From NCBI GenBank assembly GCA_965205015.1, contig OZ242029.1, positions 1,184,001 to 1,248,000 of the forward strand: DNA of 64,000 nucleotides, read 5' to 3'. The notes beneath the pieces are model-generated. The model did not search any database. It worked only from the letters and a program-made list of their open reading frames with translations, and was not told where the DNA came from. Made by a program: the position numbers and the translations under genes. The DNA is from Candidatus Poribacteria bacterium (GTDB lineage: Bacteria > Poribacteria > WGA-4E > WGA-3G). This document shows, piece by piece, positions 7,541 to 35,833 of the stretch; position 1 is the stretch's first letter, and each line of letters starts with the position of its first letter.

Positions 7541-7657
7541 TATAGTAAAGTTTAGAATTAATTAGACACTTTAAAGAGGCGAGGATACAATCCTCGCCAG
7601 CGGCGGAGAGGATTGTTTCGCTCAGCAACTGTCTACATATTTTTCGACTTTACTATA
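7541..7657. mobile_element. 117-bp MITE-like element (copy 1), TA-flanked
   Basis: Ends TATAGTAAAGT...ACTTTACTATA (perfect 11 bp, imperfect 28 bp); copy at 34615-34731 differs by one base; internal GGCGAGG..CCTCGCC hairpin. Confidence 0.85.
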
Positions 7658-7685
7658 AATGGACATTATGGACCTGTGCGTTGGC

Positions 7686-7737
7686 GGGCAGTTACAAGAC
7701 CTCAGGAAACACCCAAGCACAAGCAAAAACCCCCTAC
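7686..7737. repeat. GTAG-type REP-like element (GGGCAGG..GACC..CCCTAC family) with internal insert
   Basis: Related copies at 34557-34602, 45844-45890 and 61292-61371. Confidence 0.7.
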
Positions 7738-7975
7738 GAGGGGTCTGTTTATTTTTCGGGGTTACCACAGTTTTTGCTATTTTCAATGGATATGGAAAAT
7801 TTTTCCCTTGTTATTTTTTTTTGCATTGTATATTATATGTGTAGGCGGAAATTTGTAAGCCAACACAATACACAGCAGAAAAAATTTGGGCAGAAGGTTG
7901 TCAGTCTTCATCAGAACTTTGGTAGGAGCACACTGTGCTCGCGACGCGCCCCAGCGCGTAAAGGAGAACACAATC

Positions 7976-8995
7976 ATGGCAGGGAAACTGAAAGTAGCAG
8001 CAGTTGGGTGCGGTGGCATCGGGCACCGTCATCAACTGGGGTATCTTCAGCATCCGGGTGCGGAATTGGTGGCAGTATGCGATATAGACACTGCTAAAGC
8101 GAAGACACGTGCTGAAGAGCTCGGCATAGAGAAGTGGTACCCTTCTATCAAAGAGATGCTTGCGAATGAAGAGTGCGACCTCGTAGACGTTGTAACCGCT
8201 GATTATCTGCACTTTGAACCCGTGATGGAATGTCTGGAAGCCGAGAAACACGTTATCTCTGAAAAACCGTTGTCCCTTTACATCGATGAAGCCGAACAGA
8301 TGGTTGCGAAGGCAGACGAAAAAGGCGTCTACCTTGCTATTGATTACAATCGTCGGTTTGCGCCTGGATACGTTCAAGCACGGAAGTGGTTTGACGCGGG
8401 TGCTATCGGGCAGACCTATTACTTGGATATGAAATTATCTCAAGGTGGACCCGCCTCAACGTGGAAAGGCGAATATTACCTGCTCTATGAACTGGAAACC
8501 CACGCGATTGACCTGCTGCGATGGTTTGGCGGCGAAATTGTCGCCGTTTGCGTGCAAATGGCGAAGCCGCGGGAACATGAAACGCGTGAGGGTGAAGATG
8601 CATGTTATACCAGCATGGCTATCTCTTTCCGCTATGAAACAGAAACTGTTGCGACATTGATGGCGAGTTGGGACAGCGATTTTATTCACCCGATCGAGCG
8701 CCTCGAAATCTGCGGTTCTGATGGCGAAATTGTCGTTGATAATGTCTTGACCCGAGCGACTTTGATGAGACGGGATAACCAGGTCGTCGAAGAATACCGT
8801 CCCTCTATTTTTAGAGATGAACAACTTGCGTTTAATGGAACATTCGCCTTGCGGGTGGCTGCTCTTGTTGATGACTTACTCGCCGATCGATCGCCTGCTC
8901 CAACGGGAAGAGATGGGTTGCAAGCGTTAAGGATTACCGAAGCCATTGTGGAGTCATGGAAGGAAAAACGGGAAGTTACAGTCAAGATCGATTAA
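7976..8995 (+). CDS. Gfo/Idh/MocA family oxidoreductase
   Basis: AAVGCGGIG, SEKPL, YNRRF; AAGGAG RBS before ATG 7976. Confidence 0.92.
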   Translation: MAGKLKVAAVGCGGIGHRHQLGYLQHPGAELVAVCDIDTAKAKTRAEELGIEKWYPSIKEMLANEECDLVDVVTADYLHFEPVMECLEAEKHVISEKPLSLYIDEAEQMVAKADEKGVYLAIDYNRRFAPGYVQARKWFDAGAIGQTYYLDMKLSQGGPASTWKGEYYLLYELETHAIDLLRWFGGEIVAVCVQMAKPREHETREGEDACYTSMAISFRYETETVATLMASWDSDFIHPIERLEICGSDGEIVVDNVLTRATLMRRDNQVVEEYRPSIFRDEQLAFNGTFALRVAALVDDLLADRSPAPTGRDGLQALRITEAIVESWKEKREVTVKID

Positions 8996-9053
8996 GAACA
9001 ACAGGTAAACCATATCTCACGCAGCCCGTTTCTATATGCAAGGAGGAACAACC

Positions 9054-9740
9054 ATGAAACATTATCCGTCTTATTCAAGAAAATTTCGTCAGGTATTACG
9101 CACCGGTTCGTCATATTCAACAGTGGGTGCTTGCGTTGCCTCACTGGTTTTTGCGCTTCTGGCACTAAACTGTGGTCCACCCCCGCAGGGGCAGTACCAC
9201 GTCCCTGAAACGGCGATTGCTGCTGCGGAAAGGAACACGAGGCAGGGGTCCGGAGGGAGCGAAGTTAGCTTACCCGACAGTGCTACCGTCCAGTTGCAAA
9301 GACTGCCCTACGTCCGAAACGCCTTCAAAGAACCCCCGCGCGTTGGGAGCAGGGGCGGACTCGACGATTTTTATGCAACGACCCGTGGTCGCGTACAGAA
9401 TGTTGCTATTATTTCCAACTGTTCGCTCGATGTCTTAAAGGCATTTGTCGCAAAAGGATGGCCCCCTATTGTGATGATCCAATTCCAAGGACGAACCCCC
9501 GAGATCGTAATATTATCCGATTACAACGACCAATTGCGCGAGATGTCGCTCCAGAATCCGACCAGCCTTAACAAACGTCGATTGAGTTACACGGATTTTG
9601 AGGCATCTTGGAGCAAGAGTTCACGGAACAAATGTGCTTTAATCACACCACAACAACTCTCGGAAACAGACGTTCAGAACGTGTTAGGCAGATACTTACC
9701 TACAGACGCGTTCCAAGGGATTGGCGTGAGAAGTCGCTAA
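9054..9740 (+). CDS. Putative lipoprotein with C39-peptidase-like C-terminal fold
   Basis: AGGAGG RBS, hydrophobic segment and LALNC lipobox; GWPPIV..YND..LQNP..SYTDFEASW resembles the C39-like fold, catalytic His not evident. Confidence 0.55.
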   Translation: MKHYPSYSRKFRQVLRTGSSYSTVGACVASLVFALLALNCGPPPQGQYHVPETAIAAAERNTRQGSGGSEVSLPDSATVQLQRLPYVRNAFKEPPRVGSRGGLDDFYATTRGRVQNVAIISNCSLDVLKAFVAKGWPPIVMIQFQGRTPEIVILSDYNDQLREMSLQNPTSLNKRRLSYTDFEASWSKSSRNKCALITPQQLSETDVQNVLGRYLPTDAFQGIGVRSR

Positions 9741-9744
9741 ATGG

Positions 9745-11652
9745 TTGAATGAGGATAAAATCTTGAGAGCTCTTCCCTTCACGGCTGTTACGATTAGCGA
9801 CGGGTTCTGGGCACCTCGGCAACAGACGAATTCCGAGGTAACGATTCCCCACGAATTGGCACAATGCCGAACAACAGGAAGAATCGATAACTTCGCGAAA
9901 GCCGCTGGTTTGATGTCTGGCGAATTTGAAGGCATTTTCTTCAACGACTCCGATGTCCACAAATGGGTAGAGGCGGCATCGTATACGCTTCGGACGCACC
10001 CGAACCCAGTATGGGAATCGGATCTGAATGACGTCATCGCAAAGATCGCCGCGAGTCAACAGTCTGATGGTTATCTGAACACCTACTTTACGCTGGTCGA
10101 GCCGACGAAGCGGTGGCAAAACCTCGGCATCATGCACGAACTCTACTGTGCCGGACATCTATTTGAAGCAGCCGTCGCGCATTATCAAGCCACCGGAAAG
10201 CGTATCCTCCTTGACGTTGCGTGCCGATTCGCAGACCTCATCGATAGTATCTTTGGACCCGATAAACGGGATGGTTTGCCCGGGCATGAAGGCATTGAAC
10301 TTGCGCTCGTGAAATTGGCAAGCGTTACAGGTGAAAAACGCTACTCGGCACTCGCGGAATACTTTGTCACCCGACGTGGGCATTCTCCCTCAGTCTTTGA
10401 GAAGGAATTAGAGAATCCGGACATTCCCGGTGGGCTCGAGGCGTATCGACATCACTTCACGCGCGACGGAAAATTTGAGGGGCATTACGCGCAAGCGCAT
10501 CTCCCGGTACAGGAACAGACAGAGTGTGTTGGACACGCCGTGCGTGCGATGTATCTTTACAGTGCCGCCGCCGACATCGCTTATGAGACGGGCGATACCG
10601 CAATCATAAACGCCTTGGAGGCGCTCTGGCGGAACGTCACAGAGAAACGCTTATATGTCACCGGTGGCGTGGGTCCTTCTGGACACAACGAAGGTTTCAC
10701 GAACGACTATGAGTTACCGAACGTCTCCGCCTACGCTGAAACATGTGCCTCTATTGGGCTGATATTCTGGGCACACCGAATGTTCCTACTGCGGGGTGAG
10801 TCGCGCTTTGTGGATGTACTAGAGACGGCACTTTATAACGGCGCGCTTTCTGGAATTTCGCTCGATGGCACGGGCTTCTTCTATCAGAATCCACTGGCAA
10901 GCCACGGCGGTCGGCATAGACACGAGTGGTTTGGCTGTGCCTGTTGTCCGCCGAATATCGCGCGACTTCTCGCATCTATCGGACAGTACGTTTATGCCGA
11001 ATCGGATGAAGGCGTATGGGTGAACCTATACATCGGCGGCACCGCTGACGCAACTGTTGCCGGCGACGTTTCGGTGAAAGTGACCCAAGAAACGGATTAT
11101 CCGTGGTCAGGCGAGGTCAAGATAAGGGTGGAACCGGAAACGTCTGTAAGGTTCGGATTGAATCTACGCATCCCGGCGTGGTGTGATGCGTTTGAAGTGT
11201 ACGTCAATGGATCCGCTCACAAGTTAGAAAGAGATGCTAACGGATATCTCTCCATTCAGCGACAATGGCATGCGAAGGACACAGTTCGTCTGACGCTCAC
11301 CCTGCCTATTGAGCGGATCTACGCACATCCACTTGTTAAAGAAAATCTCGGCAGATTTGCGCTGCGCCGCGGTCCCTTGGTCTACTGCTTTGAGGATGTA
11401 GACAATCCCGATGGCGTTTTTCAGACGTTGGCGCTGGCAGACGATGCCGACTTAGAAGCAGCGTTTGACAATGAGCTCTTGGGCGGCGTTACCCGCATCC
11501 ACGGTACAGGGAGGGTTCTTGATGCCGCCGATTGGGGTAATCACCTCTATCTACCTTCAAAACCTGCTTGGAAGCGCACAGACGTTACGGCAATCCCGTA
11601 TTACGCATGGTGTAATCGCGGCGCGGGACAGATGGCTGTGTGGGTTTTGTAG
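9745..11652 (+). CDS. Glycoside hydrolase family 127 (beta-L-arabinofuranosidase-like)
   Basis: FNDSDVHKW, HELYCAGH, GHAVRAMYL, AETCASIG, CACCPPN, IPYYAWCNRG. Confidence 0.95.
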   Translation: MNEDKILRALPFTAVTISDGFWAPRQQTNSEVTIPHELAQCRTTGRIDNFAKAAGLMSGEFEGIFFNDSDVHKWVEAASYTLRTHPNPVWESDLNDVIAKIAASQQSDGYLNTYFTLVEPTKRWQNLGIMHELYCAGHLFEAAVAHYQATGKRILLDVACRFADLIDSIFGPDKRDGLPGHEGIELALVKLASVTGEKRYSALAEYFVTRRGHSPSVFEKELENPDIPGGLEAYRHHFTRDGKFEGHYAQAHLPVQEQTECVGHAVRAMYLYSAAADIAYETGDTAIINALEALWRNVTEKRLYVTGGVGPSGHNEGFTNDYELPNVSAYAETCASIGLIFWAHRMFLLRGESRFVDVLETALYNGALSGISLDGTGFFYQNPLASHGGRHRHEWFGCACCPPNIARLLASIGQYVYAESDEGVWVNLYIGGTADATVAGDVSVKVTQETDYPWSGEVKIRVEPETSVRFGLNLRIPAWCDAFEVYVNGSAHKLERDANGYLSIQRQWHAKDTVRLTLTLPIERIYAHPLVKENLGRFALRRGPLVYCFEDVDNPDGVFQTLALADDADLEAAFDNELLGGVTRIHGTGRVLDAADWGNHLYLPSKPAWKRTDVTAIPYYAWCNRGAGQMAVWVL

Positions 11653-11664
11653 TTTCCTCCTTTC

Positions 11665-13794
11665 TTATTCGAGGACTGGCGCATGCAGAGCAGGCGCGGA
11701 AGCACTGGCGTCTATGGCACCCGCCACCAAGACAAGGTCTTGTATATTGACAATCCCATCACGATTGACATCCGCAGGATTACTTCCCGATTTCCCAAGA
11801 TTTGATGCGATCAATACAAGGTCTTGGATGTTAACAACATCATCCCCAGTGACATCCTCTTTGCGTCTTATAGGTTCAATCGCATCTGATACAGGTTCAG
11901 TGGCCTCCGACATCGTAGACGGGTTGAGTTCCCATACGAGTACCGTGCCGTCCTTACTCCCAGTTGCGATGAGATTGCCATCTGGACCAAACGATACGCT
12001 GTCAACATCATCCACATGCCCAGCGAGCGTGCGGCGCTCGCTCCCCGTGTCCACATCCCACAGACGGGCGGTGCCGTCCCAACTCGCGGTTGCAACGGTC
12101 GTCCCATCTGGACTATACGATACGCTGACGATCGCCGCCTTATGTCCGGTGAGCTCGTGGAGTTCACTCCCCGTGTTCGCATCCCAAAGGCGGGCGGTGC
12201 CGTCATAACTTCCGCTTAGGATGATCGTCCCATCCGGACTAAACAATACGCTGGCGACCCCATCCCTATGCCCGGTGAGCTCGTGGAGTTCACTCCCCGT
12301 GTTCGCATCCCACAGGCGGGCGGTATGGTCATAACTTCCGCTGACGATGGTCATCCCATCTGGACTAAACGCTGCACTTCTGACCCAATGTGTATGCCCA
12401 GTGAGGGTGCGAAGATGGTTACCTGTGTTCACATCCCACAGACGGACGGTGTTGTCACCACTCGCGGTTGCGATCATCGTCCCATCCGCACTAAACGATA
12501 CATCTCTGATCCAATCCGCATGCCCAGAGAGCGTGCGGCGCTCGCTCCCCGTGTTCACATCCCACAGACGGGCGGTGTCGTCATAACTCCCGCTGGCGAT
12601 CATCGTCCCATCTGGACTAAAGGATAGACTGTTGACCCAATCCCTATGCCCGGTGAGCTCGTGGAGGGGATCACTCGCGTTCACATCCCAGAGACGAACA
12701 GCATGGTCCACACTCCCACTGGCGATCGTCGTACCATCCGGACTCATCGATACAGCGATGACCCCATCCGTATACCCGGTAAGGGTGCGGAGGGGATCCC
12801 CTGTGTCTGCATCCCACAGACGGACGGTGCCATCCCGACTTCCACTGGCGATCGTCGCTCCATCCGGACTCATCGATACATCTCTGACCCAATTCTTATG
12901 CCCAGTGAGGGTGCGGAGGGGATCCCCTGTGTTCGCATCCCACAGACGGGCGGTGTCGTCATAACTCCCGCTGGCGATCATCGTCCCATCCGCACTAAAC
13001 GATACGCTGGTGACTGTCGTCCTATGCTCGGTGAGGGTGCGGAGGGGATCCCCCGTGCTCGCATCCCACAGACGGATGATGAGGTCCGCAGCTGCGACGG
13101 TGGTGCCATCCGGACTAAACGCTACGCTATTGACCCCAATCCTCTGATGCCCGGTGAGCGTGTGGCGCTCCCTACCCGTGTTCACATCCCACAGACGGAC
13201 GGTGCGGTCTTCACCCCCGCTCGCGACGGTGGTGCCATCCGGACTAAACGCTACGCTGGTGATCCCAGGTCTAACAAGACTTCTGCCCGACTTCGTATGC
13301 CCAGTGAGGGTGCGGAGGGGACCCCCTGTGTTCACATCCCACAGACGGACGGTGTTGTCTGCACCTCCGCTCGCGAGGGTCGTGCCATCCGCACTAAACG
13401 CTACGCTGAAGACCCTATTCGTATGCCCGGTGAGCGTGTGGAGGGGACCCCCTGTGTTCGCATCCCACAGGCGGATGTCACTGTCTTCACCCCCGCTGGC
13501 CATGGTGGTGCCATCTGGACTAAACGCTATGCAGTTGACGCCAGACGTATGGCCCCTGATCAGTTCAAGTTCTTCGCCTGTCTGGGCGTCGTAGATCCAA
13601 ATACCGATATTACTTACGACTGCCAGGTGTGTGCCGTCCGGCGAATACTTTATTTGATTTATCTTGCCTTTGCCGAGACGTGCTTTAGCACCTTCGGGTA
13701 ATCCCAACGTTGTGTAATCTTGTGCAAAGGTGTTTGCCACGTCAGCAAATATCGCCAAAAGTAGAACTAAAATCGAAAATAGTGTAATTTTCAT
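11665..13794 (-). CDS. Secreted WD40-repeat protein with C-terminal dockerin-like domain
   Basis: Signal peptide, GLPEGAKARLGKG, about 13 GH..WD repeats (~126-bp DNA repeats), two EF-hand-like dockerin repeats (DVTGDDVVNIQDLV, DVNRDGIVNIQDLV). Confidence 0.92.
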   Translation of the reverse strand: MKITLFSILVLLLAIFADVANTFAQDYTTLGLPEGAKARLGKGKINQIKYSPDGTHLAVVSNIGIWIYDAQTGEELELIRGHTSGVNCIAFSPDGTTMASGGEDSDIRLWDANTGGPLHTLTGHTNRVFSVAFSADGTTLASGGADNTVRLWDVNTGGPLRTLTGHTKSGRSLVRPGITSVAFSPDGTTVASGGEDRTVRLWDVNTGRERHTLTGHQRIGVNSVAFSPDGTTVAAADLIIRLWDASTGDPLRTLTEHRTTVTSVSFSADGTMIASGSYDDTARLWDANTGDPLRTLTGHKNWVRDVSMSPDGATIASGSRDGTVRLWDADTGDPLRTLTGYTDGVIAVSMSPDGTTIASGSVDHAVRLWDVNASDPLHELTGHRDWVNSLSFSPDGTMIASGSYDDTARLWDVNTGSERRTLSGHADWIRDVSFSADGTMIATASGDNTVRLWDVNTGNHLRTLTGHTHWVRSAAFSPDGMTIVSGSYDHTARLWDANTGSELHELTGHRDGVASVLFSPDGTIILSGSYDGTARLWDANTGSELHELTGHKAAIVSVSYSPDGTTVATASWDGTARLWDVDTGSERRTLAGHVDDVDSVSFGPDGNLIATGSKDGTVLVWELNPSTMSEATEPVSDAIEPIRRKEDVTGDDVVNIQDLVLIASNLGKSGSNPADVNRDGIVNIQDLVLVAGAIDASASAPALHAPVLE

Positions 13795-23864: not shown

Positions 23865-24329
23865 TCAGGGACGGACACTCTGCTGTCGTTTAAGGGTTTC
23901 GATCTCTTCTCGGAGCTCCTGATTAATGCGTTGCTGTTGGCTATCTCTCCCACTTCGCCATGTCAAGATAACCTGTGGGATGGCAATGGCAGCGACGATG
24001 AGGGCGATGAGCGCATAGACGAAATTCGTCAAGAGGGTAATCTGTTTGTGTACCCCCTCGATTTTGGTCTCAATATACGTTTTCACGTTTTTCTCCGAAT
24101 CGGCGATCTCTGTTTTGAGTTCTTGCTTGACTGTAGCGATCTCTGTTTTGAGTTCTTGCTTGACTGTAGCGATCTCTGTTTTGAGTTCTTGCTTGACTGT
24201 AGCGATCTCTCCTTTGACGACCTCGTTGACGATTAAGCGGATCTTATCTAAGTCAGCATCTGTTAATTCACCGAGTGCCGGGACCGCAAATGTGGAAAGG
24301 AGGAGTGCAAAAAGAATGAGGCGTTTCAC
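23865..24329 (-). CDS. Exported coiled-coil membrane protein, LTDADLxKIRLIV family (paralogue 2)
   Basis: GTG start with AAGGAG; three perfect 33-bp EIATVKQELKT repeats; TM helix; RINQELREEIETLK tail. Confidence 0.82.
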   Translation of the reverse strand: MKRLILFALLLSTFAVPALGELTDADLDKIRLIVNEVVKGEIATVKQELKTEIATVKQELKTEIATVKQELKTEIADSEKNVKTYIETKIEGVHKQITLLTNFVYALIALIVAAIAIPQVILTWRSGRDSQQQRINQELREEIETLKRQQSVRP

Positions 24330-25864: not shown

Positions 25865-26350
25865 TCAAGGGTTGACAATCTGCTGTTGTTTGAGCGTTTC
25901 AACTTCGCGCGTGAGGACTTCAATCTGCTTTTCTTGTGCGTTGTCCGTGATGCTCCGCCACCCTAAAAAGACTGTCAGAATCGCTAATGGGAGTCCTATG
26001 ATAGCGATGAGTGCAAGAAGGATACCTATTAACCATGCGACTGGGGTTTTCAAAGTGTCGACTTGTTGGTTAATGTATTCTTTCATCCGAGTTTCGGAGA
26101 TGGTGATCTCGCTTTTGACTTCCGAAATGCTTTCTTTCATCCGAGTTTCGGAGGCGGCAATGCTTTCTTTCATCCGAGTTTCGGAGACGATAATCCTTTC
26201 TTTCATCCGAGTTTCGGAGACGGCGATCTCGCTTTTGACTTCCTCTTTGACAATCAAGCGGATTTTGTCCAAATCGGCATCGGTTAGTGCACCGAGTGCC
26301 GGCATCGCGATGACACAAAAGACGATTGCGGAGAGCAAAACAGTTTTCAT
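25865..26350 (-). CDS. Exported coiled-coil membrane protein, LTDADLxKIRLIV family (paralogue 3)
   Basis: Signal peptide, SETRMKE 33-bp repeats, TM helix, ETLKQQQIVNP tail; TTGACA-17-TTTACT upstream. Confidence 0.82.
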   Translation of the reverse strand: MKTVLLSAIVFCVIAMPALGALTDADLDKIRLIVKEEVKSEIAVSETRMKERIIVSETRMKESIAASETRMKESISEVKSEITISETRMKEYINQQVDTLKTPVAWLIGILLALIAIIGLPLAILTVFLGWRSITDNAQEKQIEVLTREVETLKQQQIVNP

Positions 26351-26437
26351 GGGATAGTTCCTTTCCTTTGTATGTAGTAAATCATATCTGTTTCCGGGTG
26401 TCAAGACAAAAGTTATGCCCGACTCCGGAAAGGGTGT

Positions 26438-27690
26438 TCTGCAAACAAAAAAGGGTCGGTACCGAGGTACCCACCCTTTTTTGTGGTTAAGGTTAGTTCA
26501 AACAAATTTTATCCCTGAAATAACCTTTTTGTTGCTACTACTCATGAGATGTCTTCAACTCACCCCAGAGGGTTGTTGCTTTGCCCGCTGCGCCGACATG
26601 CCCTTTGAGGCGTATGCCGCGCGTCAGGGTCTGACGGTTTCCGTCAAGAGAAACATCTTCAATTTGGTAGTAGTATACGACGTTAGGTTGAGCAGTTGTA
26701 TCCGTGTAAGTATAGAACTGCTTCTCACTGGTAGTACCTGCGCCCGGAACCATTGTGGCGTTGATGACTTTGAACTCACCGTTGCGTTGCTGTGAACGCT
26801 TGATAAAGAATCCAGCGTTATTCAGCTCGGATTGCGTCGACCAGGTAATCACGGCTTGCCCCGTCGCTTTATCGCGTGCGGGACGGAAGTGTGAGAGTTC
26901 GACAGGCAACGCACCACCAGTACGGAAGCCGGGTGTACCGACATCATTCGCTGCACCGTAGTAGTTTGCCCGACGGATATGCGTCGGATGTGCGAAAGCC
27001 GTATCGGCTGCGCGTCTCCAAGTGGTCATCATCTTGCCGTCTTCAGGTTCTGCGGGTCCGACAGAGACTTGAACGTGGGCACGAATGAGAGAGGAACGGG
27101 CTTCGCCCTCTTCGCCCATCGGTAATGCCCAAGCGGCTGCGCCATCAGCACCGAGGTTGCCCGCCATATCGGTAGCGGCTGCGTGTGCGGCCTTGGCTTT
27201 CAAGTCAGCGGCTTTGGCTGCGGCTTTTTCAGCAGCGGTTGCCGTTGCTGCGACTTTGGTCGCCGTGGGGGCTGGTGGTGCAAGCACGACTTCAAATGCC
27301 ATCTCACTCAACAGCGAATAGCGACGCTTCGTCACGCCCGCCAGAATTAACTCCGTCTGACCTGATTCCCAGAGGTTGAGGACATAGTCGGCTGAGAGTC
27401 CACCGAGATCGTTGCGGCCCATTTCGGTGACGACTAACAAGGTCGAGGGTATCGTGTTCTGTCCACTCCGCGTGATCATCGTCCCATCGGGGATTGTGAA
27501 CGTGATAGAACCACCGACGGATACATCGGCATCCGCTGCGGCGTTATTCACCGTCAACGTCCATCCACTCAAGTTTACATCCTCGGTACGGGAACCGTTA
27601 GAGATTTCAAGCCACTGCGGCAATCCGTTGCCCCTGTCAACCATAATCTCACTGACGTAGATAGCACCCGCATCTGGGACGGTTCCGGTG
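26438..27690. repeat. ~1.25-kb inverted repeat arm (partner ~33208-34458)
   Basis: Near-identical C-terminal coding region, trailer and terminator of the two paralogues. Confidence 0.9.
26445..26484. terminator. Intrinsic terminator of left surface-protein gene
   Basis: A6-GGGTCGGTACCGAGGTACCCACCC-T6 hairpin; inverted identical copy at 34412-34451. Confidence 0.85.
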
Positions 27691-29540
27691 CCTGCTTTTT
27701 TCGCAGCAGCATCGGCAGCAGCTTTCGCAGCAGCATCGGCTTTCGCTTTTTCGGCAGCGGCGGCAGCGGCGATTTCAGCAGGGGTCACGAGACGGGCGGC
27801 ACCTGGACTCCCGATGTGGACACCCGGAGCGTCCGCGTCAAAGTTCAAACTCGGGGGTGTCGACTGCATCCAAGAACTTGCCACCGTGCCATCGGCGACT
27901 GTTCCTGTCGCATCCATCACACGATACATGGAGATGATGGACTGTGTGGGTACGATTGCGCCTAAGGCTGCGGCTTGTTCCTCTTTACCCGACCGACCTG
28001 ATTGCCCTTTGCCTGCGAGCGACCAATAGGTACCTGCCGCATCAACGGTGCCGACTCGGTCGTGAACAGCCGTTAAGGCAGGGAGGGAAGCGAGTTCGCT
28101 CGGATTATAGAAGATCAGCGTGACAGATTCATAAGCAGCCGTAGCTCCATCATCGTCCACAGTCGCAAAACCGGCACCTGGATTATACAACTCAATCCAC
28201 TGGCTATTGCTGGCAGGCTTCAAACTTGCATCGGAACCCCACATAATCTCGGTGATCTTCAAAGGTTGCGGACCGACAACATCAATCACACCACCATTGG
28301 AGAGGAACGTCTCCAAGTTCGGGAGACCTGTTTGGTCGTGAACGACGTTATATTTCTGTTCGGGCACTGTCCGCTCGTGTGGCTTCGGAGCTTCCTTAAT
28401 TTCACCAGGCGGGGTGTGGACGGAGGAACCCGCTTTGTTCACAGTAAGGACTAAGTAACCACCACCGGGGATGTATTTTTCTTTCGGCACTTTGAACGCA
28501 ACCCCTGCGGCTTTCGGGGTCTTTGGATCCGCCGTTTTGGTCTTGACTGTCAGTTTATCCCTACCCTCAACGAGAGCACTGTCAGCATCGCGGTTATACA
28601 TCTCCTGTGCTACGGTGGGTGCCGGTCTCTCCATGCCAGCAAAATTCTTAACTTTGACGGTAACTGTCTTTTCGCCCGGCTTTGTTCCGATAGTAACGAG
28701 ATACAGATGCAACATTCCATCGCGCCAAGTATCTAATGTATCAAGACGAACTGCGGTGTCAAATTCGGTAGTACGACTAACGAGACCAGCATCATCTGAC
28801 ATTGTAGCTCCCGCTGGTGATGCTAACTTAAGAACAGAATTAACAGTTGCGTTATCTCCGACATCAATTAGATCTTTGGTGAGACCGCCTTTCGCATCTT
28901 CACTCAATAGAACGTGAACCATGAATTCAGCAGAAGTGACTATTACAAAAGGCTCACCGACTCTTGCGATTTTCAAAACATCTGGACCGTTAGTGGCATG
29001 ACCGAACGTTGCGTTACCTGTTTCAGCTGTGTCAGGGTCGGCCAGACCATCTTCTACCAAGAAAGTAACTGTTATCTCAGCTTTTGCGTTGGCATCATCA
29101 TCATCACCAACTGTGGGATCTGCTGCACCAACTTTGCCTTGTGGTATCTGCAAATACAATTTTCTAATAGCGGCATCAGGAGTCATCGTTATTGTGTAAT
29201 TCTTACCATCCGCTGGTAGGCCTGCAGATATTGTAGCCGTCGGTTTTGTCTGAATTACATTATTTTCATCATAGGCTTGCATGACAAGATCAGCTGCTGC
29301 AAATTCTTCACCAGTGGCGACGGCATTGGCTGGCACGCTCGTGACAATTTGTCCAAACGTCACATTAAATACAATCTCTGCACCAGCCTCCCGTTGCTCT
29401 CCATCAGCATGACTTATATCATGACCGCCTACTGAGATTGCGGCACTGAAATCACCCGCCATTGCAGGTGTTACCACGAAAGCGAGAGCGAGTATTGTAA
29501 TTAAACTTGTCAAGGAAAATGCCCATTTCTTAGACATCAT
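26538..29540 (-). CDS. Large exported surface protein with two lamin-tail-like domains and C-terminal LPVELSHF/Fn3-like domain (paralogue L)
   Basis: Signal peptide; ITEIMW..QWIELYN and VSEIM..QWLEISN LTD-like motifs; ALPVELSHF...YYYQIEDVSLDG; GKATTLWGELK tail. Confidence 0.85.
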   Translation of the reverse strand: MMSKKWAFSLTSLITILALAFVVTPAMAGDFSAAISVGGHDISHADGEQREAGAEIVFNVTFGQIVTSVPANAVATGEEFAAADLVMQAYDENNVIQTKPTATISAGLPADGKNYTITMTPDAAIRKLYLQIPQGKVGAADPTVGDDDDANAKAEITVTFLVEDGLADPDTAETGNATFGHATNGPDVLKIARVGEPFVIVTSAEFMVHVLLSEDAKGGLTKDLIDVGDNATVNSVLKLASPAGATMSDDAGLVSRTTEFDTAVRLDTLDTWRDGMLHLYLVTIGTKPGEKTVTVKVKNFAGMERPAPTVAQEMYNRDADSALVEGRDKLTVKTKTADPKTPKAAGVAFKVPKEKYIPGGGYLVLTVNKAGSSVHTPPGEIKEAPKPHERTVPEQKYNVVHDQTGLPNLETFLSNGGVIDVVGPQPLKITEIMWGSDASLKPASNSQWIELYNPGAGFATVDDDGATAAYESVTLIFYNPSELASLPALTAVHDRVGTVDAAGTYWSLAGKGQSGRSGKEEQAAALGAIVPTQSIISMYRVMDATGTVADGTVASSWMQSTPPSLNFDADAPGVHIGSPGAARLVTPAEIAAAAAAEKAKADAAAKAAADAAAKKAGTGTVPDAGAIYVSEIMVDRGNGLPQWLEISNGSRTEDVNLSGWTLTVNNAAADADVSVGGSITFTIPDGTMITRSGQNTIPSTLLVVTEMGRNDLGGLSADYVLNLWESGQTELILAGVTKRRYSLLSEMAFEVVLAPPAPTATKVAATATAAEKAAAKAADLKAKAAHAAATDMAGNLGADGAAAWALPMGEEGEARSSLIRAHVQVSVGPAEPEDGKMMTTWRRAADTAFAHPTHIRRANYYGAANDVGTPGFRTGGALPVELSHFRPARDKATGQAVITWSTQSELNNAGFFIKRSQQRNGEFKVINATMVPGAGTTSEKQFYTYTDTTAQPNVVYYYQIEDVSLDGNRQTLTRGIRLKGHVGAAGKATTLWGELKTSHE

Positions 29541-29603
29541 TCGTTCTATCTCCTTGTTCTTATGGAATAAAATTTTTGAAACATATAACCTAAAACCTTT
29601 TAT

Positions 29604-29688
29604 AGTTGTCGGTTGTCGGTTGTCGGTTGTCAGTTGAAGAGGATAAATTCTTTTATGACTGAAAACTGAAAACCGAAAACTGAAAACT
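29604..29688. repeat. Heptamer tandem repeats (GGTTGTC)n/(ACTGAAA)n
   Basis: Visible; similar heptamer tracts at ~52628-52745, 58601-58620 and 61262-61290. Confidence 0.8.
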
Positions 29689-29709
29689 ATTTCAAACGAA
29701 GAACGGACT

Positions 29710-29756
29710 CAGGGATTGTAAATCCAGTTCTGTTTTTGAACTTAACCTTGTACACA
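29710..29756. repeat. 47-bp perfect inverted leader block (partner 31183-31229)
   Basis: Exact reverse-complement identity; a second identical block pairs 29541-29573 with 31293-31325. Confidence 0.95.
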
Positions 29757-29890
29757 TAATGTTATATTGGATTATGTGTTTTTAAGGGTCTTAACCGTTT
29801 TCAACGCAGAATTTATCAGAATATCGCAGTTTTCATCGTTTTCAACGCGTAATTCATCAAAATATCGCGTTTCAACCCTTTATAGTAATA

Positions 29891-29919
29891 ATTCTACCCT
29901 ATTAAACGCTGTTTGTCAA
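29891..29919 (-). promoter_or_regulatory. Strong sigma70-like promoter for paralogue L
   Basis: TTGACA-17-TAGAAT with AT-rich upstream region. Confidence 0.75.
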
Positions 29920-30341
29920 ATTAAAAATACAAAAAAATGCACTTTTTTGCGAAATAAACGCATAAAAACGCATAATTCAACAAAAAAGTGCGAAATTCAA
30001 CAAAAAAGTGTAAAATAGGACCAGTGATTTTTGTGATTTTTGTGATTTTTGTGATTTACCGGCGATACTGATGAAATTTCGGCGAATCATAGACCATCAG
30101 GAAAATCCCAGAAATCGCAATTCAGACCAGTGATTTTTGTGATAAGCTATGATGTTCTGTGATGCCAGAATCTCAGTTGATCATAGAACATCAAGTAAAT
30201 CAGAGTTCAGACATTTAGGTGGCTTAGCTGGTGGGGGCTGCCGGGGTAGTAAAATCCGATCCATGATAACGCCTGATGCTGAAAGTTGCGCTAATCATAG
30301 AACATCAGGTAAATCACAAAAATCACAGTACAGAAGGAGGG

Positions 30342-30384
30342 CGGACAACGGGAGAATTCCCTACACTCTCCCGTTATCCTTTTA
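30342..30384 (+). terminator. Possible intrinsic terminator
   Basis: GGACAACGGGAG...CTCCCGTTATCC followed by TTTT. Confidence 0.5.
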
Positions 30385-30588
30385 GTTTGATTAAATGGAG
30401 GAGATTAGCGTCGTCCTCAGGACGGGGTAAGTTTAACCTCTGTCCAAGAGGTTACTTTAATTATCCACTATTTGCCGATAAAAGTCAATTAAAATTAAAA
30501 ATTCCCGCTCTCGATCCTTTATGCCCCCAGGGGCATTCAAGGGAGTGGAGCGGGTTAACGGACAACGGACAACTGAGGACGAACCACT

Positions 30589-31005
30589 ATGAACCCAGAC
30601 ATCTATCTCTCCGTGGCGCAAGCCTCCGACCTACTGGGCATCTCGCCGGAAACGCTCTATAAGGAGATTCAAGCCGGGCATCTTACGGCGGTAGAGAACC
30701 CAGACCAGAAACGCAAACATAAGGTCATTGCTATTAACGAACTCTCGCGTTTATACGGCAACATCTACATCCCTGACGGGTATCTCGAATACTCTGGAGA
30801 CAAGTCCGTCGACTTTGTTCGAGTTGCCCTCCGCCAAGAGAACGAGAGGCTCCGTAAGGCGTTGGAAGCAACCCAGATACGGGAGCAGGATCTCAATGCC
30901 CAACTCACCGCCGCCCTCGAAAACCACAAAACGCTTATCAAGGCACACGCGGATCTCACCAAAACCATCGATAATCTCACCGCCGTGCTGGATAAAATGA
31001 CATAG
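30589..31005 (+). CDS. Excisionase-like (HTH_17/MerR-type) DNA-binding protein with coiled coil
   Basis: YLSVAQASDLLGISPETLYKEIQAGHL winged HTH; C-terminal heptads; GAGG RBS. Confidence 0.8.
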   Translation: MNPDIYLSVAQASDLLGISPETLYKEIQAGHLTAVENPDQKRKHKVIAINELSRLYGNIYIPDGYLEYSGDKSVDFVRVALRQENERLRKALEATQIREQDLNAQLTAALENHKTLIKAHADLTKTIDNLTAVLDKMT

Positions 31006-31325
31006 GTCCTTCTGATTTTGTAAAATTTTTGATAATTTTGTAAAAAATCCACATATCTTATAGCGGGGCTCTATGGTATTACAATTTTTTAAAATACCGT
31101 CCTAATCCGTCCCTACAGGCGCGGTTTTTCACCTGAGGCCACACGTCCAAAACTCCTTCGTTCTTTGCCGAATTTAACTTTTTGTGTACAAGGTTAAGTT
31201 CAAAAACAGAACTGGATTTACAATCCCTGGATCCGTTCTTATTTTTCAATGGTTTTAGGTAAGTAGGGGTTGGGGCTCCCAACCCATCAAACATTTTATT
31301 CCATAAGAACAAGGAGATAGAACGA

Positions 31326-34300
31326 ATGTTGTCAAAGAAAATGGCAGTTTCGTTAACAAGTCTAATCACTATATTTGCCCTGGCATCTCTGCCTGTATCG
31401 GCATTTGATGTGAAATTCGATGCCCATGATATCAGTCATGCTGGCGATATCCAGCTCGAAAGGGCAGCGTCAGTAGTGGTATATGTCAACTTCGGGAAGA
31501 CGGTAACACTTGCGGATGTCAAAGCAGCATTTGGTTATTCCGCCGCTACTGCTGCGAGTACAGATGCAGTCGCAGCAGGTGGAAAGATTGATATTCTCAA
31601 TTATCATGGAGCTGTAATTGATAGTAATGCTACCGGTTCTGAGAATACCGTTGTGATTGCAGATCGCGAAGTCGATGATCGTTTGGTACTAGATGATGTT
31701 AATCAGATACAGTCGGGTAAGGACTATACGATTACGATTACCCTTGATGCTGATACGCAGCTCCCTGCTACTTCTGGTGACAATGCAGGGGTTTTTGATA
31801 AGAATGAGCATGCCTACAAGCTGCGTTTATTCCTTCCCAAAGATGCTCTGATTGAAGCAGACCGTAACGCCGGGACCAAAAATAATGTAGGATTCCATGA
31901 CAAAATATTTTTGGTAGGTGCCGAACCAGCTGCCATTGAAGATCGCGCTCCGTCGCCACGTAGCATTGCGCTTGCCCCGGGTGTGTTAATACCGGATGCT
32001 GGTTTCACAGGCGACACGTTCGATATCATTGTCACATTGACTGAGCAGCCGAAAGAGAACAAGCTCACTGCCGCAGATCACTTCGATGTTGCTGAAGGAA
32101 CTGCATCTGATGGTGTATATTTGGGTGAAATAGCGGCTCCTGCGGATGCCGCAACCGGCGATGATACGCCCCGATTAGCAAGTGGACGTAACGGTATGGA
32201 TGAGCGATACCTCGTCACGCTTACACCGGCAGCTAAAGACGCCAACTTGGTTTTCAAGTTAAAAACTTTTGGAGACCAAGAGATTTATACGTACGATGAC
32301 GACAAGAGCGACATAACAGGTAGAGGACCAAACGAATGGGATCCACCTGTCAGTGAACTTGATCGGAAAGAGGGTGAAGATAAAATAACGGTCAAGATCA
32401 AGAAGCAAACAACCGGTCCAGCAAAAACCGCGGGTGTGAAGTTCGGTTTACCGAAAGAAAAATACATCCCTGCGGGTGGCTACTTAATCGTTGCAGAGGA
32501 CATAACGGGCTCCGCTATCCACAAGACGCCTGGTGAAATTAAGGAAGCTCCGAAACCGCACGAACGGACACCTGCCGAGATGATGTATAACGTCATTGAC
32601 GATGGCGATCTCCCGAACCTTGAGACCTTCCTCTCTAATGGCGGTGTAATTGGTGTGATGGGACCACAACCTTTGATGATTACCGAGATCATGTGGGGTT
32701 CGGATGCAAGTTTGGACGATCCCGGCAAGAGCCAATGGATTGAGCTGTATAATCCCGGTGACGGGTATCAGACACAGGATGGCGATAACACCACGTATCT
32801 GGTTTTCTACGGACCGGGTGAAACCCCCGCAACAGGGATTCATGACAGCGTTGGAACCCTCGATCCAGTAGCTGGCTATTGGTCGCTCGCAGGTAAAGGT
32901 CAAAATGGTCGATCCGCTGAAAGGATCCTTGGGGAAGAAGCAGCGGTCGCAACCGCATCGATCGTCTCCATGTATCGTCTCATAGATGCGTCTGGGACAT
33001 TGGCAAATGGGCGCATGAAAGATTCCTGGATGCAGTCGAGTCCTCCGAGCATGAACTTTGAAGCGAATGCCCCGGGTGTTCACATAGGGACACCAGGCGC
33101 AATGACCGATATGACGGCGTTGCGAATGGCTGAAGCAGCCAAAGCCAAAGAGCAAGCCGATGCTGAAGCCAAAATGAAAGCCGATGCTGAAGCCAAAGCC
33201 GCAGCGACGGGCACTGTCCCACAGGCGGGTGCTATCTACGTCAGTGAGATTATGGTTGACAGGGGCAACGGATTGCCACAATGGCTTGAAATCTCTAACG
33301 GTTCCCGCACCGAGGATGTAAACTTGAGTGGATGGACGTTGACGGTGAATAACGCCGCAGCGGATGCCGATGTATCCGTCGGTGGCTCTATCACGTTCAC
33401 AATCCCCGATGGGACGATGCTCACGCGGAGTGGACAGAACACGATACCCTCGACCTTGTTAGTCGTCACCGAAGCCGGACGCAACGATCTCGGTGGACTC
33501 TCAGCCGATCATGTGCTCAACCTCTGGGAATCGGGTCAGACGGAATTGATCCTCGCAGGTGTGACGAAGCGTCGGTATTCGCTGTTGAGTGAGATGGCGT
33601 TTGAAGTTGTGCTGGCACCGCCAGCCCCGACAGCAATGAAGGTCGCTGCCACCGCAACGGCAAAGGAAAAAGCGGATGCCAAAGCCGCTGACCTGAAAGC
33701 CAAGGCCGCACACGCAGCCGCTACCGATATGGCGGGCAACCTCGGTGCCGATGGCGCAGCCGCTTGGGCATTACCGATGGGCGAAGACGGCGCACCCCGT
33801 TCCTCTCTCATTCGTGCCCACGTTCAAGTCTCTGTGGGACCCGCAGAACCTGAAGACGGCAAGATGATGGACACCTGGAGACTCGCCTCTATGACGAGTT
33901 TCGCACACCCCACGCATATCCGTCGGGCGAACTACTACGGTGCGGCGAACGATGTCGGCACACCCGGCTACCGTGCTGGCGGCGCACTGCCTGTCGAACT
34001 CTCACACTTCCGTCCCGCACGCGATAAAGCAACGGGTCAAGTCGTGATTGCTTGGTCGACGCAATCCGAGCTGAATAACGCTGGATTCTTTATCAAGCGT
34101 TCACAGCAACGAAATGGCGAGTTCAAAGTCATCAACGCCACAATGGTTCCGGGCGCAGGTACTACCAGTGAGAAGCAGTTCTACACCTACACGGATACAA
34201 CTGCTCAACCTAACGTCGTATACTACTACCAAATTGAAGATGTATCACTTGACGGAAACCGTCAGACCCTGACACGCGGCATACGCCTCAAAGGGCATGT

Positions 34301-34358
34301 CGGCGCAGCGGGCAAAGCCACCACCCTCTGGGGTGAGTTGAAGGCATCTCATGAGTAG
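31326..34358 (+). CDS. Large exported surface protein with lamin-tail-like domains (paralogue R)
   Basis: Same architecture as 26538-29540; AAGGAG RBS. Confidence 0.85.
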   Translation: MLSKKMAVSLTSLITIFALASLPVSAFDVKFDAHDISHAGDIQLERAASVVVYVNFGKTVTLADVKAAFGYSAATAASTDAVAAGGKIDILNYHGAVIDSNATGSENTVVIADREVDDRLVLDDVNQIQSGKDYTITITLDADTQLPATSGDNAGVFDKNEHAYKLRLFLPKDALIEADRNAGTKNNVGFHDKIFLVGAEPAAIEDRAPSPRSIALAPGVLIPDAGFTGDTFDIIVTLTEQPKENKLTAADHFDVAEGTASDGVYLGEIAAPADAATGDDTPRLASGRNGMDERYLVTLTPAAKDANLVFKLKTFGDQEIYTYDDDKSDITGRGPNEWDPPVSELDRKEGEDKITVKIKKQTTGPAKTAGVKFGLPKEKYIPAGGYLIVAEDITGSAIHKTPGEIKEAPKPHERTPAEMMYNVIDDGDLPNLETFLSNGGVIGVMGPQPLMITEIMWGSDASLDDPGKSQWIELYNPGDGYQTQDGDNTTYLVFYGPGETPATGIHDSVGTLDPVAGYWSLAGKGQNGRSAERILGEEAAVATASIVSMYRLIDASGTLANGRMKDSWMQSSPPSMNFEANAPGVHIGTPGAMTDMTALRMAEAAKAKEQADAEAKMKADAEAKAAATGTVPQAGAIYVSEIMVDRGNGLPQWLEISNGSRTEDVNLSGWTLTVNNAAADADVSVGGSITFTIPDGTMLTRSGQNTIPSTLLVVTEAGRNDLGGLSADHVLNLWESGQTELILAGVTKRRYSLLSEMAFEVVLAPPAPTAMKVAATATAKEKADAKAADLKAKAAHAAATDMAGNLGADGAAAWALPMGEDGAPRSSLIRAHVQVSVGPAEPEDGKMMDTWRLASMTSFAHPTHIRRANYYGAANDVGTPGYRAGGALPVELSHFRPARDKATGQVVIAWSTQSELNNAGFFIKRSQQRNGEFKVINATMVPGAGTTSEKQFYTYTDTTAQPNVVYYYQIEDVSLDGNRQTLTRGIRLKGHVGAAGKATTLWGELKASHE

Positions 34359-34411
34359 TAGCAACAAAAAGGTTATTTCAGGGATAAAATTTGTTTGAAC
34401 TAACCTTAACC

Positions 34412-34451
34412 ACAAAAAAGGGTGGGTACCTCGGTACCGACCCTTTTTTGT
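34412..34451. terminator. Intrinsic terminator of right surface-protein gene
   Basis: GGGTGGGTACCTCGGTACCGACCC hairpin followed by T-tract. Confidence 0.85.
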
Positions 34452-34614
34452 TTGCAGACCCCTTCCTGCCTGATTCACACAATCCCCCCGATGCCTCCTA
34501 CGCTGCCTCCGCTGGGTCCATCGATTCAGGCAAAAAGAAACGAAGGCGCGGTGAGTGGGCAGGTACAAGACCTAAGGAAACACCCCAGCAAAAACCCCCT
34601 ACAAGATGTCTATT

Positions 34615-34762: not shown

Positions 34763-35833
34763 TCAAAGGACGTTCCCGGGGTCTGTCAGTGTTCGGGTGA
34801 ATGCGTCAAGACTTTGCGTCCGCATCGCTTCTCGAAGCAAGTGCTTGAGACGTTGTAAATCGTCAATCGCTTCAAGCGGCGGTTTGAGGGTTTCAGCGGT
34901 GTTTGCCTGAAACCGCATATCGAGAAATAGCAGGATGCTCTCGATAGTGGTTTCTTTCGCACCTTGTTCTATGCCTTGTTCTATGCCTTGTTCTATGCCT
35001 TGTTCTATGAGAGCTTCAGCAGCCGTCTGTGCCATGATGGCAACCTCCCTTTCATCTCGACTTTGCTCTTTGACGATGTCTACAAACGCATCCCGCTCAG
35101 CAGCGGAGCGGCGATGAAAAATCAAAAGGATTAAATAGTTGAGTGCCTCCCGCAACTGGGCATCTTGTGTCCCCGCCAAACGACTGATCTCGGAGACCGC
35201 CACTTCTAAGGCTTCACGGAAGGCGGTTTCATCCGCATGCTCCTCTTGAAGCACGCGCAGCAACCAACCGAAAGGATGTCCTGACTCGATCAGCGTCTCC
35301 GCCGTCATCCGTTTTACGTCTAAAAACAGTGTGTCAAACGTAGGGACAAACCGCGCCAGGGCTCTCGGGACATTGAGAATCTCTGTCAACGCCTTCGGCT
35401 CCGTCCACCGATCCGTCCCCGTGTAAAAGACGATCGGTAAGATCGGAGACCACTGCTGTTCACCCGCAGCCCGCGAGTCCAACTGCTGATATTCCGATTC
35501 CCAGATGCGCCCCATGTACATCAACATGCGCAGCCGCATCAACGCCTCCACACTCGATTGATGCTCTATCAGAATACAGATATGCACCGCTTCATCCGAT
35601 GCCGACGCCTGAAACGGAACACGCAGCAAGACATCCGCCTCACGCTCCCGCAACGCTGCCGACAGAAAACTTCGGTTCTGCTGAACACCTCTTTTGAAGT
35701 CAAGAAAACCCACCAACTCCGGGGCGAGAAGTTCTACTAAATATCTTACATAATCTGCATCTTGCAGCAACCGCCGCATACTCCGATCCGGAAAGTGGTA
35801 CACCTTCTCATCAGAACTCACGGGGTTTGACAT
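34763..35833 (-). CDS. Rpn/YhgA-like (PD-(D/E)XK transposase_31 family) nuclease
   Basis: EADVLLRV, LIEHQS, MRLRMLMYM, ILPIVFYTG..W, (EQGI)n tail. Confidence 0.9.
   Translation of the reverse strand: MSNPVSSDEKVYHFPDRSMRRLLQDADYVRYLVELLAPELVGFLDFKRGVQQNRSFLSAALREREADVLLRVPFQASASDEAVHICILIEHQSSVEALMRLRMLMYMGRIWESEYQQLDSRAAGEQQWSPILPIVFYTGTDRWTEPKALTEILNVPRALARFVPTFDTLFLDVKRMTAETLIESGHPFGWLLRVLQEEHADETAFREALEVAVSEISRLAGTQDAQLREALNYLILLIFHRRSAAERDAFVDIVKEQSRDEREVAIMAQTAAEALIEQGIEQGIEQGIEQGAKETTIESILLFLDMRFQANTAETLKPPLEAIDDLQRLKHLLREAMRTQSLDAFTRTLTDPGNVL

Follow-up and report, generated by a model that had tools for sequence, protein, structure and literature searches.

Probable recombination at the leaders of two opposed genes

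In a stretch of 64,000 nucleotides from a Candidatus Poribacteria bacterium (GenBank assembly GCA_965205015.1, contig OZ242029.1, positions 1,184,001 to 1,248,000; this whole stretch is called the window, and positions are counted from its first letter), two large genes for secreted proteins with a lamin tail domain (LTD) point away from each other at 26438..34458, the locus under study, and are separated by a spacer of 1.8 kb which carries a promoter-like site, P_A, and a helix-turn-helix (HTH) gene. Our reading, to which we give a probability of about one half, is that the leaders of these two genes recombine in natural populations, inversion of the segment between them included, without forming a strict on/off switch. 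As judged from sequence comparison, the replacement of N-terminal cassettes at the species level is clear, and inversion at the strain level is probable, while we infer that the inversion is recurrent, reversible and changes expression. The genes and leader parts in question are as follows.

26438..26537, minus strand: 3' flank of the left gene, with a terminator hairpin at 26445-26484 and an inverted block1-like motif at 26496-26517
26538-29540, minus strand: left LTD-domain secreted protein gene, 1000 residues, N-terminal type 'alpha'
29541..29579, minus strand: leader block 2 (ribosome-binding region), left copy, with a 36-bp perfect inverted repeat that takes in the ATG
29583..29682, no strand: insert of the left leader with no counterpart in the right one, a short repeat that forms a hairpin
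29683..29768, minus strand: leader block 1, left copy, with a 47-bp perfect core at 29710-29756
31171..31256, plus strand: leader block 1, right copy, with the 47-bp perfect core at 31183-31229
31287..31325, plus strand: leader block 2 (ribosome-binding region), right copy, from repeat search and alignment
31326-34358, plus strand: right LTD-domain secreted protein gene, 1010 residues, N-terminal type 'beta'
34359..34458, plus strand: 3' flank of the right gene, with an inverted block1-like motif at 34379-34400 and a terminator at 34412-34451

The original prediction had described two divergent genes of about 1000 residues with near-identical C-terminal ends, and every detail of its description that was checked proved correct. 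The open reading frames (ORFs) encode 1000 and 1010 residues, and the two proteins are 59% identical overall by BLASTP, with an identity that varies strongly along global alignments: the signal peptides are similar (17 of 28 residues), the N-terminal parts divergent (102 of 262 aligned positions) and the middle parts moderately alike (165 of 257), while the C-terminal 385 residues agree at 364 positions (94.5%). Beyond the stop codon, 100 nucleotides including the terminator hairpin are identical for both genes, and the repeat search reports their 3' ends as an inverted arm of 1312 nucleotides at 92%. On the 5' side, the 47-bp inverted blocks are a perfect reverse complement of each other with no possible extension, and the second block, given as 33 bp, is likewise perfect and grows to 36 bp through the ATG (29538-29573 / 31293-31328). 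Longer imperfect arms of 86 nucleotides at 88% and 98 nucleotides at 85% enclose these blocks in the repeat search. Perfect inverted repeats of 47 and 36 bp inside 1.8 kb lie far beyond chance.

The same geometry recurs in relatives, whose genomes are given here as G-numbers and loci as L-numbers, with _L and _R for the genes at either end of the module between the leaders. In four other genomes with two-gene loci the leaders form inverted repeats of 201 nucleotides at 98% (G125), 322 at 99.4% (G146), 249 at 95.6% (G161) and 304 at 84% (G114), and these repeats are much more alike within than between genomes. Moreover, genome-specific inserts between blocks 1 and 2 are common to both copies in all four of them. 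The adjoining N-terminal coding parts at two-gene loci are only 27-42% identical or unalignable. Judged from these sequences, the leader copies undergo concerted evolution.

Comparison of close relatives adds the fate of the attached gene. For example, G058 and G173 have 3130 nucleotides in common at 97.6%, running from 58 nucleotides inside the LTD gene through the leader, the module and the next gene, and yet the N-terminal parts of their LTD genes are unalignable and the C-terminal parts 79% identical; the same holds for G142 and G146, which are 96% identical at the P_A end. At the level of sequence, the LTD gene attached to the module is thus replaced between close relatives, with the breakpoint at the end of the signal peptide. 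The N-terminal types also change ends. The closest relatives of the alpha type are G125_R (57%) and G146_L (42%), both of which run in the same direction as the HTH gene, while in the window alpha points away from it. For the beta type the closest is G001_R (59%), co-directional with the HTH gene as in the window, and a distant one is G125_L (35%), which is divergent.

Evidence on orientation at the strain level comes from assembled contigs of four public sequencing runs (X1, X2, X4 and X5), which were aligned to 28800-32100. In run X5, which belongs to another study, the pieces are identical to the window at a depth of 3-6, and one contig of 219 nucleotides passes from 29644-29709 through the 47-bp block into the reverse complement of 31182-31077 with 0 mismatches. 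Read as sequence, this contig is the junction predicted for an inversion of 29757-31182. A false assembly path could in principle produce it, and this would need a loss of coverage at exactly both repeat borders. Since X5 holds only 0.21 of the sampled words, it is a simpler reading than a false path that the other junction was just not sampled.

Several points weigh against our reading. The X5 evidence is a single contig with a mean depth of 6.2, assembled with words of 31 letters, which are shorter than the 47-bp repeat; moreover, it reaches 66 nucleotides into the left leader, so that the same contig would result if the right leader had been converted to the left type. Runs X2 and X4, the likely source runs, break at the 47-bp repeat and are therefore uninformative on orientation. 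The loci of G125 and G146 lie on short contigs or drafts with near-identical repeats of 200-320 nucleotides, and the orientation of the middle segment there is possibly the choice of the assembler. The beta relation between the window and G125 is distant (35%), and the homology is short for recombination of the RecA type (47 bp perfect; 86 nucleotides at 88%). Finally, the sequence conservation of the inverted blocks is, as the comparison of leaders below indicates, accounted for by selection on leader function and not by recombination.

The other contigs show further structure. Run X1 covers only parts of the stretch. In X4 an opposite-strand joint from 29582 to 31246 (depth 1023, side 40) was taken for the leader variant of another paralogue or strain and rejected as evidence of inversion. 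Along 28800-32100 the depth of X4 ranges from 280 to 2858, with contig breaks at 29292-29321, 30411-30436, 30835-30864 and 31065-31094, and that of X2 is flat near 200 across the locus; the two depths suggest several strains carrying pieces of the locus in different combinations.

The leader and its conservation

When 19 LTD leaders taken from 13 genomes are aligned, the first LTD gene is everywhere preceded by conserved blocks 1 and 2, even at loci whose HTH gene adjoins an LTD gene on just one side. The complete genome G168 has six copies of block 1: four precede dispersed LTD paralogues, and one stands on either side of the HTH locus, where one lone copy flanks the HTH gene with no LTD gene behind the block. 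The inverted repeat of the window thus results from the head-to-head position of two genes that each bear the family leader, and since the blocks also occur at one-gene loci and at dispersed paralogues, their conservation is no mark of an inversion site. The idea of a segment that inverts between paralogues survives in part: the geometry, the X5 junction, the N-terminal types at both ends of the module, the concerted leaders and the gene replacement at the leader boundary in close relatives speak for it, but the blocks are not a dedicated inversion site.

The same observations bring in a plainer explanation, namely a static divergent pair, in which the repeats would be a strongly selected leader and signal-peptide region with occasional conversion, and the HTH protein would regulate in a conventional way with no inversion at all. 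It is consistent with the leader and the first 30 coding bases of the LTD genes being nearly invariant across genomes and paralogues, synonymous sites included, and with the one-gene loci (G058, G173, G153 and G169), which retain the whole module and have no leader inverted repeats. Scans of the window and of related loci gave no recombinase gene nearby, and the X5 contig may be the product of leader conversion or of assembly at low coverage. However, the genome-specific inserts common to both copies speak of sequence exchange, the alpha type stands at different module ends in different genomes, and different LTD genes sit on a module 96-98% identical in close relatives; a chimeric path in X5 would, moreover, presumably need two independent drop-outs of coverage exactly at the repeat borders. 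We consider a static pair unlikely.

Block 1 holds a small dyad, GGAT..ATCC, around a box which differs between genomes (TACAAT, TATCAT, TAATAAT or TATTAAT) and yet is always -10-like. By its sequence, block 1 may be a core promoter or an operator; as a sigma-54 or extracytoplasmic function (ECF) promoter it was ruled out by eye since the spacing misfits. A block1-like motif, GTTCAAA-N(3-20)-ATCCCTG, has four copies in the window, where 0.00 are expected; they alternate in orientation and bracket both LTD genes. Its 3' copy (26496-26517 on the plus strand, 34379-34400 on the minus strand) is invariant across genomes while the 5' copy varies, and for this lack of co-variation the idea that the 5' block pairs with the 3' motif was rejected. 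The left-leader insert at 29583-29682 has a metagenome depth of about 14-16 times that of its flanks and is therefore a multi-copy element; its Rfam matches are sub-threshold and of hairpin type only. In other genomes this place between blocks 1 and 2 is taken by inserts of a different sequence.

Promoters at the two ends of the module

The module between the leaders holds these features.

29788..29868, no strand: two direct repeats of 40 nt lying between P_A and block 1, from the repeat search
29919..29891, minus strand: P_A, a promoter-like site (TTGACA-17-TAGAAT) directed at the left gene, 11/12 matches
29925..30316, no strand: AT-rich repeat region, with GTGATTTTT four times and three 43-nt repeats
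~30453 to 30340, minus strand: candidate structured small RNA, with its own promoter TTGACT-17-GATAAT at 30488..30460
30589..31005, plus strand: HTH_17 gene (138 residues), predicted winged helix-turn-helix and one long helix
31006..31095, plus strand: conserved motif downstream of the HTH gene, with TTTTGTAAAA repeats and a promoter-like CTTATA-17-TACAAT at 31057-31085

Among related loci the order recurs as LTD gene, block 2, block 1, P_A, AT-rich repeat and an element of about 115 nucleotides, followed on the opposite strand by the HTH gene and then a conserved motif past its stop codon. P_A, which the original prediction had singled out, indeed ranks first among the 17 promoter-like sites of 26300-34600 (11 of 12 matches; shuffled sequences give 8.8 +/- 3.2 sites). 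In 11 of 13 related loci it faces the divergent LTD gene; in G001 it sits at the edge of a contig, and in G057 it was not found. In five relatives the P_A unit is confined to HTH loci and to positions ahead of LTD paralogues, besides two further short matches.

The claim that only the left gene has an obvious promoter is weak: P_A is strong and conserved, but the right gene has a TACAAT motif, the -10-like box of block 1 and possible read-through. In an alignment of 16 loci, the motif past the HTH stop codon of relatives carries an outward TTTACA-17-TACAAT, kept in most loci. The window copy retains TACAAT (31080-31085) at the same spacing of 17 nucleotides and has a degenerate -35 (CTTATA, 31057-31062), so that it reaches 8 of 12 matches, below the scan threshold. 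A terminator scan of 31005-31325, between the HTH gene and the right gene, gave no terminator-like site, and read-through from the HTH gene into the right LTD gene seems possible from the sequence. Furthermore, at the four dispersed LTD paralogues of G168 the P_A-like unit is directed away from the LTD gene, toward a small HTH_23-like ORF, so that the transcription of these genes must begin elsewhere. This unit of P_A and small ORF, inverted relative to the LTD gene, is tandem-duplicated there with a period of 122 nucleotides.

These results bear on the mechanism that the original prediction had in mind, a programmed single-promoter switch of the kind known from the sap locus of Campylobacter fetus, in which P_A would be the sole promoter and a frequent, reversible inversion of 29757-31182 would give phase or antigenic variation. 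The position and direction of P_A are conserved, the module is asymmetric, the strain in X5 shows the predicted junction and is otherwise identical over the pieces aligned, and the -35 past the HTH gene is degenerate in the window where relatives have TTTACA, all of which would suit such a switch. On the other side, the right gene keeps the promoter-like elements named above (TACAAT, the block 1 box and possible HTH read-through), and the G168 paralogues have no P_A aimed at them and hence must be expressed otherwise. A switch of this kind is to our mind improbable. Both LTD genes of the window may, as far as their upstream sequences tell, be expressed in either orientation, and since the right gene has promoter-like elements, an inversion is likelier to exchange the regulatory context than to act as a strict on/off switch.

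The HTH protein and the search for a recombinase

The segment was predicted to contain an excisionase-like HTH gene, and its product indeed matches HTH_17 (PF12728) with 29.3 bits against a cut-off of 27, while its match to the excisionase family TIGR01764 stays below the cut-off (24.5 against 28.8). Its first 60 residues superpose on BldC and on the Xis protein of mycobacteriophage Pukovnik, with target template-modelling scores (TM-scores) of 0.71-0.78 and Foldseek E-values of 0.006-0.03. This N-terminal domain is also like those of MerR, and a helix of 65 residues follows as in MerR regulators. Such a fold is common to transcription factors and recombination directionality factors, and therefore the fold does not decide the role of the protein. 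Of 175 genomes of the phylum, 13 have it at 71-88% identity; an LTD gene adjoins it in 13 of 14 loci, and it is far more conserved than the LTD proteins. As a family it is specific to Poribacteria, with more than 200 clusters at 75% identity or above, all unnamed, and has no effector domain. It also weakly resembles the plasmid DNA-binding protein family NF038291 (below cut-off). A metagenome scan with this protein gave one unrelated match of 30% only. Many metagenome contigs bearing the HTH gene measure 0.8-1.5 kb, about the size of the segment between the leaders (one has 1507 nucleotides at 90% identity); the leader repeat evidently interrupts short-read assemblies.

Scans of 43 ORFs in the 64-kb window and of 30 flanking ORFs at 13 related loci gave no tyrosine or serine recombinase family; they did yield IS605 TnpB, IS630-type and IS5-type transposases, Rep3 initiators and further immunoglobulin-like (Ig-like) proteins. 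Since no invertase gene lies nearby, general homologous recombination is the most likely route. Alternatively, a remote enzyme might act in a shufflon-like manner, with the block1-type motif of about 40 nucleotides as its site and the Xis-like HTH protein as an accessory or directionality factor. The four copies of the motif at both ends of both genes in alternating orientation, the invariance of its 3' copy, the likeness of the HTH N-terminal domain to Pukovnik Xis and BldC, and the lone block 1 beside the HTH gene of G168 would fit such a site. However, the scans gave no recombinase in the window or beside the 13 related loci, plain transcription factors (BldC, MerR) have the same fold, the motif is possibly a protein-binding or RNA element, and its 5' and 3' copies do not co-vary. 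We regard site-specific recombination by a remote enzyme as highly improbable, far more so than a static pair.

The LTD proteins

Both proteins match PF00932 (LTD), with 48.0 and 51.7 bits against the Pfam gathering cut-off of 34.3, and their relatives come from Candidatus Poribacteria and sponge metagenomes. The right protein is matched at E <= 1e-50 in 74 of the 175 phylum genomes, often in several copies per genome and often clustered. Its predicted structure is a chain of beta-sandwich (Ig-like) domains with a mean predicted local distance difference test score (pLDDT) of 70.5, residues 884-1010 lying outside the model. The structural matches are generic, namely tandem-Ig adhesins, filamin and antibodies, together with the surface-layer (S-layer) proteins SbsB and SbsC at low TM-score. 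From these predictions it is reasonable to regard the LTD proteins as secreted and likely surface-exposed.

A candidate small RNA and other parts of the module

The element of about 115 nucleotides has 83-89% DNA identity in eight genomes, and its predicted fold has three hairpins, with compensatory changes in 6 of 33 predicted pairs over nine genomes; in terms of sequence it is a candidate small RNA. Rfam has no family for it and gave nothing at gathering scores, and 29400-31450 gave only sub-threshold matches of hairpin type. A CUCCUCC stretch is exposed in the predicted fold. Pairing with the LTD ribosome-binding region was considered and rejected: the duplex energies are -13.6 and -12.5 for the two leaders, where 500 shuffled sequences gave -13.45 +/- 2.9, and the LTD leaders were outscored by many of 43 control ORF starts.

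Between P_A and block 1, many genomes have a small ORF of 87 residues with a weak HTH_23 match (L061:1019-1282, plus strand), which is lost in the window; the leaders of G058, G173, G125, G114, G146 and G142 also carry it. The 43-nt repeat is specific to the window genome, with no match in 13 related loci. In contigs of X1, X2 and X4, 30020 is joined directly to 30378, skipping 357 nucleotides, at a depth above the local depth, and these contigs indicate that there are other copies or strains without the block of GTGATTTTT and 43-nt repeats.

Neighbouring genes

One further gene lies beside the locus.

34763..35833, minus strand: Rpn/YhgA-like PD-(D/E)XK gene (PF04754), whose membership of the system is uncertain

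A PF04754 homologue is also beside the locus in G168 and G169, and the family occurs in four of five genomes, with 2-5 copies in each of the four. As a recombination factor this gene was rejected, for it is away from the locus in G161 and G153, and the family was not detected in G173. It has a 12-nt tandem repeat at 34962-35009 coding for four IEQG units, and in G168 a DUF4351-like fragment with the same IEQG repeat lies just past the HTH gene. To the left of the locus, two small ORFs (23865-24329 and 25865-26404, both on the minus strand) have 33-nt tandem repeats at 24070-24230 and 26071-26243; one of them has weak coiled-coil-type matches only, and relatives of both are in L046.

Mobile elements cluster at the modules of relatives (L042:6462-7616 and 8519-9715; L048:8612-9823; L049:8669-9880 and 10435-11793; L051:6154-7242 and 7626-8933). 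There are IS605 TnpB genes directly past the HTH gene in relatives, an IS630-type transposase within the module of G146, and, in G173 and G057, Rep3 replication initiators close to the HTH gene.

Comparison with known systems

In Campylobacter fetus, the S-layer is switched by inversion of a promoter-bearing segment between opposed sapA homologues, which have several hundred bp of homology. This sap locus is, by analogy of arrangement, the closest analogue of the present one. In the window too, opposed paralogues of a variable secreted protein flank a segment with an outward promoter, and the conserved 5' regions form inverted repeats at the borders of the segment, as they do in four other genomes; the segment likewise has no invertase gene, which fits homologous recombination, and further paralogues elsewhere share the 5' region. 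However, the homology in the window is far shorter (47 bp perfect, 86-98 nucleotides at 85-88%; up to 322 nucleotides in relatives), the cargo of the segment is the HTH gene and the candidate small RNA where sap carries secretion genes, and the Ig-like LTD family is unrelated to the sap proteins, a single promoter and an S-layer role being hypothetical for the window.

The fimS element (FimB/FimE), Salmonella hin and the invertible promoters of Bacteroides resemble the locus in having a promoter-bearing segment in inverted repeats by genes for surface structures. In contrast, those systems have a dedicated and usually adjacent recombinase, none of which was found in the window or in the related-locus scans, and their repeats serve the recombinase only, while the repeats here are leader copies present also at loci that are not invertible. 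On these two grounds the invertase-driven invertible promoter was excluded as a family.

The HTH protein resembles the winged-helix proteins MerR, BldC and Xis in passing the PF12728 cut-off and sharing the predicted fold, and it differs from the named members in having 138 residues, in belonging to a Poribacteria-specific family and in having no effector domain. In the mba locus of Ureaplasma (PMC3047005), DNA inversion at specific short inverted repeats is reported to switch expression between the major surface protein and its paralogues and to yield chimeric genes. The locus studied here is similar in its inverted repeats beside paralogous genes, and dissimilar in that both genes of the window are complete and the repeats lie in the leader. 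Our literature search found no paper that links Poribacteria with lamin tail domain proteins and, among the papers listed, none on inversion or phase variation in Poribacteria.

A working model and its meaning for the symbiont

To put these results into a mechanism, a conserved poribacterial expression module would serve a multigene family of secreted Ig-like LTD-domain proteins. A sigma-70-type P_A would fire through the leader, that is, block 1, a variable insert and block 2 with the ribosome-binding site, into the LTD gene. In the window a second paralogue, oriented opposite to the first, stands past the HTH gene, and the leader copies therefore form inverted repeats around the module of 1.4 kb; recombination between them would either invert the module or convert one leader into the other. 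An inversion would swap which paralogue sits behind P_A and which behind the HTH gene. At the same time the conserved ends, namely the 5' leader with the signal peptide and the 3' C-terminal domain with motif and terminator, would let N-terminal cassettes be replaced between paralogues.

A bolder version is that Poribacteria possess an expression-site system, with a single-copy module and a portable leader, with cassettes bracketed by the motif of about 40 nucleotides, and with inversion and replacement changing the N-terminal domain on display. We hold this version only tentatively, as a good deal less probable than leader recombination as such and slightly less doubtful than a static pair or a single-promoter switch. 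If it is true, it would mean programmed surface variation, perhaps as an escape from sponge phagocytosis or phages.

Sponge symbionts persist in an animal that feeds by engulfing bacteria, and they live under heavy phage pressure. The locus is a concrete candidate for variation of the symbiont surface, since a conserved module carries an attached variable gene that differs between close relatives, and the module may flip between two paralogues. Should leader recombination be borne out, surface variation driven by recombination, which is known mainly from pathogens, would extend to an uncultured symbiont phylum, and new regulatory parts would be defined with it, namely the HTH family, the small RNA and the leader.

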